Source: Cladosporium halotolerans (Eukaryota). From it: a stretch of 64,000 bases of DNA. The notes beneath the pieces were generated by a model. It was not told the DNA's origin, did no database searches, and was given only the letters and a program-made list of their open reading frames with translations. Position 1 is the stretch's first letter; the number at the start of each line of letters is the position of its first letter. Shown here piece after piece: positions 15,464 to 20,469 of the stretch. The translations under genes were made by a program, and so were the position numbers. The stretch covers positions 124,001 through 188,000 of the forward strand of contig NW_027191487.1 of NCBI RefSeq assembly GCF_011745625.1, given 5' to 3'.

Positions 15464-18025
15464 CTACTCGCCGGCGGTGCGGCGCGAGCTGCGCTCCTCC
15501 TCCTCCTCGAGGACGTCGCTGAGGCGCGTCGGGTGGTGGTGCGCGGTGCGCAGCGTGTCCCAGTCGCCGTAGCCCTCGCCCTCGTAGTCCGGGCCGGGCG
15601 GCTGGTGTTGGTCGGGCGGCGAGGGCTCGTAGGAGGCCATGGCCTGCGCGCTGGTGGCGGGGATGGTGGGCGCTGCTTCGGGCAGGATCTGGCCGCCGAC
15701 GGCGTCGGAGCTGCGGTAGCGGGCGGCGAGCTCCGCTTCGCGGCGGATGTCGGCGGCGGTATCGTAGTCGTCTTCTTCGTCGATAGGGGAGTGGTGAGGG
15801 GCGGTGCGGCGGTAGCCGGAGGGCTGGTCGACGGGGTAGTCGGTGTCGCCTTCGCTGGTGATGTAACTGGACTGTTGATGCAGGTCTTGGGGGTTGAAAT
15901 CGGAAGGATGGGGCTGCGAGGAATGCAGGTAGGTGTCCTCGGGCTGGTGGTGGTAGAACTGACCATCCGAACTGACGATGGGCATCTGGTTGCGAGGAAC
16001 GCCGAGCTGGCCAGAGGACACCGGACGTCGATCAGCGGATCCTGGGCGGTGTCCTGCTGTTTGGAAGGCTGTCTGCGCCGATGCGCCGCTTGTCGCGCTT
16101 GTCTCGCCGTCGTGAGGACTTCCGAGCGGGTACGGTTGGTAGGTGCCCGCAGCAAGCGATGATACGTCTTGATCGTGATGCATCGATTTGCTTTCCGTGA
16201 AAGGATCCGTGTTGGTAGGCGAATGCTCCTCTTGGTAATAGTCTTCTTCTCCGGGACTTTGCAAGCCCGCAGCACCAGCCGACGTCGCGCCAGGCGTGCC
16301 ACCGTAAGGCATGCCTTCTCGCGTCGAAGGTCTTTGTTGATTTGCGCTTCCGGTCCGGCTTGGGCCGCCAAAGTATGGAACAACTTGCACTCCGCTCACA
16401 ACGGTGACTCTACCAGCCTTGAGGCTCTCGGCAAGATCCAATGACTCCTGATTGCGGCGACCTAATTCTTCCCAAGCACGGCGTGCCTCTTCTTTCGAGA
16501 TCATGAGCTCACGTCTCATTTCTGCAACCTCTCTCCGCGCGTTCTCAGCGGCAATATCGCTCTCCACACGCTGCTTCGCCGCCTTCTGTCGCTCTATGCG
16601 CTCGCCTTGTATTTGCTCTTCGAGCTGGGCTCTGACTTCTGAGTTGCGCTCCGTATCTGCTCGAGTCTCGAAGAACCATCGCTGAAACTTGCGTTCGCTG
16701 CTGGCGCGCAAACGCTGCAATTCGACAACGGCGTGGAAGAGGTTTGCGCCTGCCGCGGACAAATCCGTAATTTGCCGCGACATTGCTGAGGCGGAGGGAA
16801 CGTTCCGTTGGATGTCTTCTGCATCACTCTCCAGCTTCCGAAGCCAGTAGGACGTGAGGCCCTCCCAATGCGATGATAGCTGCTCCCAGCGTTCGAATGC
16901 GTGCGGGAATGATGAGCTTCTCGAGCCTTGTTGGCCTTCACCAACATTGAGAGGTGGTGGTGGCTGCACTGGTGGCGCTCCGCTTGAATGAGCTCCAGGT
17001 CCTGCTTGCTGCTGCGAGTTTGAAGGTTGACGCGATGCTGGTGCAGATTGGCTCAAGGGACGGCGACTGTGTCCTGCAGGCGGCTGTGCCGGCCGTGGTT
17101 GATCCTGTGCCACGCTACTAGAAGCGGCACGTCGACTCGGTCCACTGGCACTAGGACCTGCACTGGGTCCTCCCGAAACATAGCCTGAGTCTCCAGCAAC
17201 TGTTCTGCCTGTTGGAACACCATAGTCGGCACCGCTAGCGACAAATCCACTTCCGCTGTGTCTACTGCCAGGAACGCCTCCCTGTTGGGCAGCAGGGTCA
17301 GCAGCATACTGCGACTGAGGGTCATACCCTGAAAGACCAGCTGCTCTTCGCTCGGCGCTATATCTTTTCTCCTGCGCCAGCTGCGCTCTTCTCTGCTCTT
17401 CTAATTTCGCCTCCTCTTGTCGCCTAGCCTCTCTTTCCTGCCTGTTGCGCATGACATCTCGCGGCGTCTTTAATCCTGTCGGCGTTCCAGTAGACACGGG
17501 GACCGGGCCACCAGTCCTGGCTCCGCCATTGGATGCGCGCCCGCCGCCCAGATCAGACATCTGGGCGAACTCCTCGTCGAGGTCCGCGCTGAACGGATGC
17601 GGTTTGCGGAGGGCTTCCTCGAGCGCGTAGAGGATTGCAGAATGGGTCCGGTTGGAGATGCGAAGCGCCGGGTGAGGGACGAAGCCAACTGGGCGCGCGG
17701 ACGCTGCTCGCCTGTGGTGAGGTGATGTGTCGCGGGTCCGGGGAGATGCTGCTCGGGGCTCTCGCTCGCGCTGGGGAGAGAGATTGCGCGTAGGCGAGTC
17801 GACCGAGCTCGCCCGCACGTATGTCTGTCTCCGTGGCTCGTCGAAGCGGGGAGTGCGCCGGAGGGTGTTGACGCTGCCGGAAGAGGAAGACGGACGCGAG
17901 AACTCGTTCAGTTGCTGGCGGTAGTACGCTGAGGCCTGCTCGCCGCGTTTCCGGATCAGCGGTGTCGTAAGACGGTCGTGGGGCTCGTCTCGGTCGTTAA
18001 AATCGGCAAAGCGTATTCGCGGCAC
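15464..18025 (-). CDS. Uncharacterised protein, largely disordered with a central coiled coil; likely GTG start (first in-frame ATG at 17560)
   Basis: 853-codon open frame with ordered-looking blocks HSAILYALEEALRKPHPF, FPHAFERWEQLSSHWEGLTSYWLRKLE and LFHAVVELQRLRASSERKFQRWFFE, and C-terminal HHHPTRLSDVLEEEEERS. Confidence 0.85.
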   Translation of the reverse strand: MPRIRFADFNDRDEPHDRLTTPLIRKRGEQASAYYRQQLNEFSRPSSSSGSVNTLRRTPRFDEPRRQTYVRASSVDSPTRNLSPQREREPRAASPRTRDTSPHHRRAASARPVGFVPHPALRISNRTHSAILYALEEALRKPHPFSADLDEEFAQMSDLGGGRASNGGARTGGPVPVSTGTPTGLKTPRDVMRNRQEREARRQEEAKLEEQRRAQLAQEKRYSAERRAAGLSGYDPQSQYAADPAAQQGGVPGSRHSGSGFVASGADYGVPTGRTVAGDSGYVSGGPSAGPSASGPSRRAASSSVAQDQPRPAQPPAGHSRRPLSQSAPASRQPSNSQQQAGPGAHSSGAPPVQPPPPLNVGEGQQGSRSSSFPHAFERWEQLSSHWEGLTSYWLRKLESDAEDIQRNVPSASAMSRQITDLSAAGANLFHAVVELQRLRASSERKFQRWFFETRADTERNSEVRAQLEEQIQGERIERQKAAKQRVESDIAAENARREVAEMRRELMISKEEARRAWEELGRRNQESLDLAESLKAGRVTVVSGVQVVPYFGGPSRTGSANQQRPSTREGMPYGGTPGATSAGAAGLQSPGEEDYYQEEHSPTNTDPFTESKSMHHDQDVSSLAAGTYQPYPLGSPHDGETSATSGASAQTAFQTAGHRPGSADRRPVSSGQLGVPRNQMPIVSSDGQFYHHQPEDTYLHSSQPHPSDFNPQDLHQQSSYITSEGDTDYPVDQPSGYRRTAPHHSPIDEEDDYDTAADIRREAELAARYRSSDAVGGQILPEAAPTIPATSAQAMASYEPSPPDQHQPPGPDYEGEGYGDWDTLRTAHHHPTRLSDVLEEEEERSSRRTAGE

Positions 18026-20469
18026 GGCGACGGGTTGGGCGTGCTGTCACGGGCGGTTCGGCCGGTCGCGGTCCAGGTGGTGCTGTCGCGGTGCGGCGGC
18101 GACACTGGTAGAGGGTGTCTGGTGAGTGTGTGCGAGCCAATGGGTCACCGCGCCGCAATGCGCGGGCGGCGGAGGGCTGAGAGTCGAGGCGCGTGCGCGG
18201 GCGTGGTGGGCGCGGCGGCAGTGGTAGGATGGAGGGGACGGGTGTCTGGGACTGCGGAGGAGGAGTGTGAGCGCGTGACAACAGCCATAGTCAGAGTGCC
18301 TGGGAGGAGAGGAGGCGGTGAATTGGGAGAGAGCAGGTGGGCGGGAGGGCGCTGGATTAATTCGGAGGCTGGACTCGCGGGTGACGTGGGTGCTCGAGCT
18401 CGGCCTGGGGTGGCTGGCGGCGGCGGCCAGCAGTCGCCGCGCGCGCGCGCGAAGCCTCACGCTCCGACACGAGCGAGCGTTGGACAGCCCCGCTAGCCGC
18501 GGCCAGCGGCGAGGGTGGACAACTGACCTTGGGCTGCGACTGCCCCTGGAAGCATGTGGTGTCTCTGTGGTATTATGGCGCGCGTGTGGTATAGGCTGCA
18601 GGGCAGATCGGGGCGATGTCAGGGTGCGTCGGGGGGTGTCGAGCGGCGGGTGCGTGTGTGCTGCGTGTGTGCTGCGTGCGAATGGTGCGCCGGTGAGGGC
18701 TGGCGTGCGCTGGCACTCCCAGGCTCCTCACTACTGCTACCTCAGCGGTGAGGCACGCGAGCGCCCTTGCCAGACCTCCACTGGCCTCGTCTTTGGATCT
18801 GCCGCGAGGCCTGCCTGCGCTCCTGCTGTCCTGCTGTCTTCGGCCTCGCTTCGCTTCGCTTCGCCGCCGCGCAGGGCAATCGAAGATGTCACAGTGCTGC
18901 TGACCGCTGCCGTCTCGTCCCGCCAGTTCGCATGCGCGTTCGCTCGTGCTGCTGTGAGCCGGTGGACAGCACAGGCAGGTGAGGTGTATTGTAGAAGGAA
19001 ACAAGTCTGCCCGCCAGCAAAGCCACCAGCCGTTCTCTCACCGTTTGCCTTTTGTGATGATTTTCTCGTCACTAGCCTGCGTCAGGCCGAGTCCTGATCC
19101 CCATGCCACATGGAGGCCCTCGAACCAGCGCCGGAGCGCGTTTTGCAGCGCCACCAGACCGCCAAAACAACACAAACTCTACCAGACCGCCCACCGCTGC
19201 GCTGCCCTCGCCAAACGCCGGCCGCGCAGCCATCGCCCGCTCGCGCCCCTCAGCAGTCTCGCGCGCCATCATCATGCGCGACACTGCTGCCCGGTCGCCC
19301 TCATACCCAGCCTGGGCCCGCGGTGCCAGCGCAGCACTGGCCCTGCTGGCACCCCTGCCCACTATCGTCGGCTGCCAATCCCCGAGCCCGTCATCCCGGT
19401 TTGCGTCGCAACGGTGAGGAAGGGCCCGAGATGAGACGGCTCCGTTGGCAAACGAAAGTGCCGATATATCGATGAGCATGGGACGGGGACGATGGAGACA
19501 TAGAAGCTGTGGTTACCGAGGGATCTGAGCGTGCTATAGGCATTTCCCACGATCGTCTTGCGCTTGCTGCGCGGCCAATCATGGTCTGTAGACAGCCGCT
19601 TTGCGCGCCCGAGGTGGCAGGGAGCCGCTACTGCGCGATGATGCCGTTTTCTCGGAGTGCATGAAAAAAAAAGGCGTCCGTCCGTTCATGTCGGGCACTG
19701 TTTCACTCTGGCACACTTCTACTGGGCACCTGCACGTCTCCCATCGTTCATGCGGTTCGGCGGTCTTCATCTGACGTTGGAGGGATCCAATACGACGCGA
19801 CAGGCTGTCTCTGTTTGGCACCGCCGTTACGCGCATTGCACTCCCCCACGCGAACCGTGCTGCCGTACCAAGATTTGTTAAGGCGCATCCTTGTCGTTAC
19901 GTCTCAGCTGTCAACGGTCGACTGAACTCTACTAACGTCTCGGGATCTCGATTTCGTTTGACTGCATCGTTGGTGAGTAGGCGACACGTGCTTCAGATAT
20001 GTTGCTATAGCAATCATTGTATAGTGAGTAGCAGAAATGGCTGCGTTGCGTTACCGCATCGCCGTCGTTTCGCAACGTTGCAAAATCACAATGGCGTTTG
20101 TAATGCCTCAGGCAATCTTCACCCAATTGGGTCGACTTCATCTGAAGTCGCTGGCTCATCACATCGGCGGCCTGAATTCAAAAATAGAGCAGCGCTTTCG
20201 CAGTCGACAGGCTCATCACATCACCGTATTGGCTAGAACCGCGCACGGAAGATGAAGACCCTCATCGCCGTTCAGGCGTGGCGAGAAGGTTCACGGCTTA
20301 CTCCATCAAGCGGCGGAATCACAAATGCGAACTGTTATATTCCGTGAAGGGAAAGGCCGTAACTTCTCGTAGGGTATCTAAGCATGTCCAAAAGAAAGAA
20401 GGGTATCAGTGCGCCCCACCGACGGCTATGCATCAGACCAAACCGTAGCATGCCTCATTCCGCCTCAAT

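Follow-up and report, generated by a model that had tools for sequence, protein, structure and literature searches.

Where does translation begin in a gene whose reading frame is open far upstream of its first ATG? The question is raised by a minus-strand open reading frame (ORF) in Cladosporium halotolerans, which lies in the stretch of 64,000 nucleotides (nt) from position 124,001 to 188,000 of contig NW_027191487.1 (assembly GCF_011745625.1). This whole stretch is called the window here, and coordinates are given within it. The protein recorded for the gene (P0001) has 698 amino acids (aa) and starts at the internal Met. The frame itself is open from a GTG at 18025-18023 to the stop codon and encodes 853 aa plus the stop. 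An initial annotation had proposed that this GTG serves as a start codon, that the resulting 155-aa N-terminal extension would be missed by standard annotation, and that leaky scanning yields isoforms of 853 and 698 aa. The record of P0001 bears out the second of these points. From comparison of related loci we consider it highly probable that translation starts at GUG 18025 and gives an 853-residue protein. The features on which the argument turns are the following.

15464..18025, minus strand: whole ORF of an uncharacterised, largely disordered, coiled-coil Pezizomycotina protein family
18047..18049, minus strand: in-frame stop (TGA) bounding the open frame, 8 codons before the GTG and separated from it by 7 sense codons
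18023..18025, minus strand: GTG, proposed initiation codon, context GTCGCC-GTG-CCG, with G at -3 and C at +4
17561..18022, minus strand: N-terminal extension, codons 2-155, with zero Met codons and ATG-free in all frames
17558..17560, minus strand: first in-frame ATG, Met156 (codon 156), the annotated start and probable second initiation site

The open frame from GTG 18025, the TGA eight codons upstream and the first ATG at codon 156 were all found where the initial annotation had placed them, and there is indeed no ATG in any frame from 18285 to 17561. Successive minus-strand ATGs, in any frame, lie at 18288 and 17560, and the 728 nt between them are free of ATG; no other such gap on either strand of the window is as long, 491 and 447 being next. 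The ATG-free stretch is C-rich (A 0.18, T 0.14), and a first-order Markov simulation with its own composition gave a mean of 2.1 ATGs and zero ATGs in 11% of 20,000 trials. An ATG-free stretch in one sequence is therefore not beyond chance by itself. A sliding-window count (0/2531) was uninformative, as its 25-nt step cannot land on the single fitting position. What is beyond chance is the recurrence of the ATG-free pattern in relatives, and it is this comparison that carries the case.

The proposed start codon and the extension in related loci

Related loci were obtained by scanning metagenome contigs with an alignment of 30 sequences (A1), which gave 80 loci of 35-81% identity. An N-terminal match was present in 74 of these, four of which ran off the contig end; the remaining 70 reduce to 50 distinct sequences including that of the window. 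The codon homologous to GTG 18025 was assigned by eye, with one locus (L079) left unassigned. It is NTG in 49 of the 50 distinct loci (GTG 26, CTG 13, TTG 10) and never ATG, and a near-cognate codon at the same site in relatives is what the initial annotation had asked to be looked for. The base at -3 is a purine in all 49 assigned loci (G 40, A 9), every one of them has an in-frame stop 3-50 codons before the NTG, and no in-frame ATG was found between the upstream stop and the internal Met among the 50 distinct sequences. For comparison, GTG makes up 25.7% of the Val codons in the same ORFs, and CTG and TTG together 34.7% of the Leu codons.

The 45 intron-less loci show the same pattern, with GTG in 22, CTG in 13 and TTG in 10, and with G at -3 in 36 and A in nine. 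The base at +4 in these loci is T (32), A (10) or C (3) and never G, so the second residue is Ser, Thr or Pro, as it is in all assigned loci; the site reads x-[V/L]-[S/T/P]-R followed by a conserved acidic/His block (P-R-I-R-F-A-D-F-N-D-R after the GTG of the window). Clustering of these loci at 70% identity gives 26 groups; each has NTG, and one of them mixes TTG (L065) with GTG (L073). An automatic MAFFT alignment places a near-cognate in the window's column in 44 of the 45 (GTG 24, CTG 16, TTG 2, ATA 2, TTC 1) and picks the same codon as the assignment by eye in 36. GTG likewise opens the first exons of L024, L031, L056 and L064, where the base at -3 is G and a stop precedes the GTG by 7 codons. 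These Pleosporales-like loci carry an intron of about 48 nt after ...QTSLQLRQ, with a classical donor, a TACTAAC-type branch and an acceptor; the window and most other loci have no intron at this position. The GC-rich L079 matches the query from residue 117 only and its upstream frame lacks the N-terminal motifs of the family, and it may be a divergent or degraded copy.

The extension also evolves as protein. Among the 120 matches listed, many homologues cover 97-100% of the 853-aa query. In A1 the invariant residues of the extension include L23, R27, S46, S48, R57 and H118, and conserved peptide blocks run across Met156 uninterrupted. In nine pairs of relatives the ratio of nonsynonymous to synonymous substitution rates (dN/dS) of the extension is 0.09-0.22, with differences biased to third codon positions; a tenth, more divergent pair yielded no value. 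From the upstream stop to the internal Met the frame is open, with neither stop nor frameshift, in 49 of the 50 distinct loci, down to 35-40% identity. The initial annotation had named stops and frameshifts in the extension of relatives as evidence that would tell against it, and these were looked for and did not occur. Judged by these patterns, the 155-codon extension is protein-coding and under purifying selection.

The long form might instead start at one or more other in-frame near-cognates, which we regard as unlikely. Such codons are available in the window (ATA at codon 4, ACG at codon 20 and CTG at codon 23) and elsewhere, since L045 has a GTG five codons upstream and Pleosporales-like loci have flanking ACG codons on both sides, and the mRNA of Neurospora crassa cpc-1 uses several such codons (PMC5487733). 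Across the 26 clusters, however, the position is conserved only for the GTG/CTG/TTG site. Because the S/T/P(-R) residues are conserved, translation must begin at or before them, and GTG 18025 is the sole near-cognate codon of the window between the TGA and these conserved residues.

Splicing, gene models and the protein family

Initiation at the GUG presupposes that no spliced exon brings in an AUG, and the ATG at 18288, which opens an upstream ORF (uORF), is the nearest candidate. RNA cover consisted of assembled contigs of four runs, of which only X6, a metatranscriptome, is recorded as RNA.

14800..18301, minus strand: X6 contig of 3514 nt from a relative about 98% identical, colinear with the window, no joints, 59 other letters and 6 gap letters

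In a second run, X7, whose RNA origin is a guess, a contig of 2426 nt matches 15828-18253 gap-free. The cover by X1 and X2 extends across all 5 kb, and these two runs look like DNA. No joints were reported in any of the four runs. Since the X6 contig is colinear over 14800-18301, no intron supplies an ATG exon, and the sequence from the uORF ATG to the stop codon is one unspliced transcript-like molecule in a close relative. The initial annotation had named two findings that would count against it, a spliced upstream ATG exon and a transcription start downstream of 18025. The first was looked for and none was seen, the X6 contig being colinear through 18025; the second did not occur, as that contig extends to 18301, although it gives no start site. 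The contig ends were dropped as evidence of the transcription start, X6 (18301) and X7 (18253) ending at different places.

It is quite unlikely that a short upstream exon with ATG 18288, or with another ATG, is spliced before the V-S/P-R site to provide a normal AUG start. The idea draws on the conservation of the upstream ATG (uATG) in a strong context in Dothideomycete-like loci and on public gene models. P0003, the C. fusiforme model, takes the counterpart of ATG 18288 as its start and begins MAIVA..., resembling the MAVVT... of the window, and many Penicillium models fuse the uATG (M-x-P-E-T) to ...VSRH by a predicted intron, several of those at NCBI reading M-x-P-E-T-(Q)-VSRH with an AG two bases before the GTG. 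The acceptors differ between species, as ab initio guesses would, and no AG close to the NTG is conserved: the window, L001-L010 and the CTG group lack one within the preceding 9 nt. Against such an exon stands also the X6 contig, which is jointless through 18301-18025, as is X7 from 18253. In total 78 GT..AG joins connect ATGs 18288, 18555 and 18933 to the frame without a stop, and none of them combines a GTRNGY donor with a CTRAY branch, in agreement with the earlier failure to find a good branch point for an upstream exon, and the joins that have a branch would delete conserved residues. The exon from ATG 18288 to the GTGACC donor is 140 nt long and therefore cannot be joined in frame to the CAG acceptor at 18044, so that this claim of the initial annotation holds as well. 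Splicing would also not account for the constant choice of an NTG codon for Val/Leu, with its -3 purine.

That AUG 17560 alone is used, the upstream 155 codons being a leader conserved for some other reason and 698 aa the whole product, is very improbable: the recorded protein of the window and many public models start there, Met156 is invariant and non-AUG starts are generally inefficient, but the upstream frame is open in 49 distinct loci of identity as low as 35-40%, its low dN/dS comes with third-position bias, and conserved blocks and a predicted helix at residues 149-158 span Met156, as they would not in an untranslated leader.

The public models, which come from dozens of named genomes, are otherwise inconsistent. 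Those of Dothideomycetes begin at the internal Met or have unrelated sequence added upstream (for example P0003, P0013, P0020 and P0037), and those of Aspergillus and Lecanoromycetes are heterogeneous. Where eukaryotic models have N-termini unrelated to one another, these are joined on just before the V/L-S-R site; prokaryote-style software places the start exactly on the conserved site, and some of its calls are printed with V or L. One Penicillium entry is named histidine kinase; no such domain is on record.

The family matched no Pfam entry at E up to 1, and the ESM Atlas returned only ‘hypothetical protein’ clusters from Ascomycota. An AlphaFold2 (AF2) model built with 30 sequences is mostly low-confidence disorder, with a mean predicted local distance difference test score (pLDDT) of 50 and a predicted template modelling score (pTM) of 0.25. 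It contains helices at residues 22-41, 125-140, 149-158 (the helix across Met156) and 188-229 and a long helix at 374-536. The best named matches are from Cladosporium and other Dothideomycetes, and the named relatives, with names taken from the nearest proteins, are Dothideomycetes, Eurotiales and Lecanoromycetes. The GTG group comprises Cladosporium and other Capnodiales-type fungi; L037, also with GTG, is Penicillium, with Aspergillus relatives. A CTG group around L045 adjoins Lecanoromycetes, Onygenales and Geoglossum being more distant, and a TTG/GTG group with the peptide LTSSGPPEL matches Pleosporales models.

Two possible phosphorylation sites were seen inside the extension. Residues 103-109 of the long form read H-H-R-R-A-A-S (window 17699-17719, minus strand); the A1 consensus at this site is HRRAAS and Penicillium-like sequences have HRRAVS. 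We take the HRRAAS site to fit the H-x-R-x-x-S/T preference of NDR/LATS-type kinases, as a lead only. The nearly invariant L-R-R-T-P at residues 55-59 resembles a basophilic kinase site, and this too is a lead only.

The internal AUG, the upstream ORF and a possible mechanism

If ribosomes start inefficiently at the GUG, those that pass it would next meet Met156, and the distribution of ATGs was compared within genes on either side of this codon. In 45 loci the extension contains no Met codon among 7201 codons, against about 102 expected from the downstream rate (421/29735). Out-of-frame ATGs are depleted about five-fold in the extension, 17 being observed and 80.2 expected by codon-order shuffling, while downstream of Met156 in the same genes there is no depletion (724 observed, 632.8 expected). 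From the NTG to the internal ATG, 28 of the 45 loci have zero ATGs in any frame. Met156 itself is invariant in 30/30 sequences of A1. This within-gene contrast in ATGs fits selection that lets ribosomes past a weak start reach the in-frame AUG, and the absence of ATG at the start site throughout the family suggests a deliberately weak start under selection. We think it reasonably likely, with less confidence than we place in the GUG itself, that AUG 17560 is also used and gives the 698-aa form by leaky scanning.

Upstream of the GUG, the leader of the window holds two features.

18145..18288, minus strand: uORF of 47 codons, ATG in the strong context ACT-ATG-G, TGA at 18147-18145, ending 119 nt before the GTG
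18137..18174, minus strand: leader block of 38 nt located at the uORF 3' end; 7 Cladosporium-like sequences agree at 33 of the 38 positions

The X6 contig reaches 13 nt beyond the uATG on the 5' side, and uATG 18288 is likely to be included in the mRNA. In Dothideomycete-like loci (L001, L003, L005, L007, L009, L010, L013, L014, L017, L020, L021 and others) a uATG recurs at -198 to -303, with A/G at -3 and mostly G at +4, and opens uORFs of 22-62 codons that mostly end 98-144 nt before the NTG. Cladosporium-like uORFs begin MA(V/F)V.... The frame of the uORF relative to the main ORF varies between loci, and the uATG contexts are weak in Penicillium-like and CTG-group loci. The initial annotation had treated ATG 18288 as a failed exon. 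That it is not joinable stands, but it is actually the start of a conserved uORF in a strong context, which complicates simple scanning.

The 38-nt block contains a local GC hairpin and the motif CCATTG and varies only at a few loop positions among the seven Cladosporium-like sequences; the remaining uORF and leader are poorly conserved there, with insertions and deletions. As the stems are invariant among the seven, covariation is uninformative for the hairpin. CCATTG recurs at -92 to -192 in other Dothideomycete-like loci, at another position or frame relative to the uORF. The block may act as RNA or as DNA, or it may encode a stalling peptide. Reading the motif as an inverted CCAAT box was rejected, since only some loci retain the five-letter core, CCATTG being the core in common. 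That ribosomes frameshift or read through from the uORF into the main ORF was likewise rejected, given that the uORF frame varies and the uORF ends 98-144 nt upstream of the NTG. The leader as a whole has no unusual structure, 18301-18026 folding at z -0.51. A second motif, CCAGCCA(T/C)C, is found further upstream in Penicillium-like and other loci.

Several observations weigh against initiation at the GUG with leaky scanning to Met156. The codon assigned by eye differs from the MAFFT column in 9/45 loci, all in the LTSSGPPEL... group, in which the conserved N-terminal peptide is longer and the start must lie further upstream, and L079 could not be assigned a homologous codon. The base at -3 is G in 40/49 loci and that at +4 is never G in the 45 intron-less loci, and the optimal Pezizomycotina start context is A at -3 and G at +4, as described in the cpc-1 study (PMC5487733). 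The contigs come from a relative about 98% identical and cannot show a transcription start, and DNA carry-over is possible. A downstream RNA structure that might aid the GUG was rejected: 18040-17926 folds at -27.9 kcal/mol (z +0.90) and 162 of 200 shuffled sequences are as stable. The internal ATG has a pyrimidine (C/T) at -3 in 42/45 loci and T at +4 in 44/45, and the ATG that follows Met156 is out of frame in 39/45; by its sequence context the internal ATG does not look tuned as an efficient start. Finally, an mRNA that includes the uATG would have its uORF translated first by most ribosomes, leaving leaky scanning or reinitiation as the ways to the GUG. Of the two isoforms originally proposed, the 698-aa form has the invariant Met156 and the all-frame ATG depletion on its side and the weak context of the internal ATG against it.

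We infer initiation at the GUG itself, production of both forms and an effect of the uORF on them, and the following sequence of events would account for the observations. The mRNA would be unspliced here, with its 5' end at or upstream of about 18301. From the uORF to codon 156, scanning 43S complexes would encounter no AUG, whatever the frame. Some would initiate at the GUG, which has a purine at -3, and make the long form of 853 residues; a near-cognate GUG is read by initiator Met-tRNA. The remainder would pass through the extension, 465 nt without an AUG, and start at AUG 17560, which is in frame with the GUG, to make the 698-residue form. A weak start under selection could then set the ratio of the two forms, or keep output low.

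More tentatively, we speculate that the whole family, in at least three Pezizomycotina classes, is a translational rheostat that sets the ratio of long to short form, although we would at present sooner bet against this than for it. An obligatorily weak NTG that never becomes AUG would be combined with a tract of 400-640 nt that is AUG-free in all frames, and the invariant in-frame AUG would act as a catch-all second start. Dothideomycetes would add, some 120 nt upstream, the unvarying 3' end of a uORF whose ATG has a strong context. The ratio could shift with start-codon stringency or eIF2 availability, and the long form would carry a regulatory Ser/Arg-rich N-terminal region that the short form is without.

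Just downstream of the stop at 15464 lies an ORF of 77 codons (15206-15436, minus strand), 44 residues of which match the C-terminal region of P0003 (1008 residues) at 55% identity (E 3e-14). P0003 omits the conserved C-terminus of the family, ...RLSDVLEEEEERSSRR. Either 15206-15436 is a conserved small downstream gene or 3' element, or P0003 fuses two genes. The X6 contig runs across 15206-15436 and on to below 14800.

Significance and comparison with known systems

The start site of this family is never AUG in 49 distinct loci and its codon turns over among GUG, CUG and UUG, which makes it an unusually clean and deep case, with a breadth from Cladosporium to Penicillium, Aspergillus and lichen-forming Lecanoromycetes. 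Public models of the family are systematically wrong, being about 150 residues short or carrying unrelated first exons, and comparative and functional work on it consequently begins from wrong proteins. In tractable fungi it would be a natural test bed for the in vivo efficiency of GUG, CUG and UUG starts, and it could show whether AUG deserts mark functional leaky scanning. The combination of the NTG with a conserved uORF hints at regulated start-site choice. The interest of the family thus lies in its depth and cleanness and in the scale of the misannotation that it explains. A literature search returned no paper on this protein family; it did not cover the list of Wei et al. 2013 (J Biol Chem), which is said to give conserved near-cognate extensions in N. 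crassa and may include an orthologue.

Non-AUG starts are known from mammalian EIF4G2/DAP5 (GUG) and, with dual isoforms, from yeast GRS1 (UUG) and ALA1 (ACG). In the two yeast genes the near-cognate gives the longer form and a downstream AUG gives the shorter form by leaky scanning. Their extension is a mitochondrial presequence, whereas the extension here has 155 residues, is Ser/Arg/Pro-rich and is mostly disordered with two conserved helices. The families of EIF4G2/DAP5, GRS1 and ALA1 are unrelated to the one described here.

The reasoning is the same as that used for human non-AUG extensions, which were reportedly recognised from a conserved open frame upstream of the annotated AUG and a conserved near-cognate (Ivanov et al. 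2011, PMC3105428). Those cases are animal genes and ours is fungal, and the likeness drawn here is in the kind of inference.

The precedent for a conserved extension initiated at a near-cognate is N. crassa cpc-1 (Ivanov et al. 2017, PMC5487733), the closest case described. As in cpc-1, the main frame is open well beyond the annotated AUG on the 5' side and contains no in-frame AUG there; purifying selection conserves the amino acids of the extension, and the position of the near-cognate is kept while its identity changes between clades. Both also have AUG uORFs in the leader, inconsistent automated annotation and a depth that spans classes. The differences lie in the protein family, which is unrelated and uncharacterised here, and in the arrangement of the start. 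We find one conserved NTG with a stop 3-50 codons upstream, whereas cpc-1 has several near-cognates and a long open leader; here the whole uORF precedes the start, whereas the start of cpc-1 bypasses it. Unlike cpc-1, the base at -3 is mostly G and that at +4 is not G, and AUGs are depleted in all frames from the NTG to the first AUG, which is invariant and in frame. The family described here, which is known from sequence, agrees at that level with the cpc-1 kind in every respect by which such cases are recognised.

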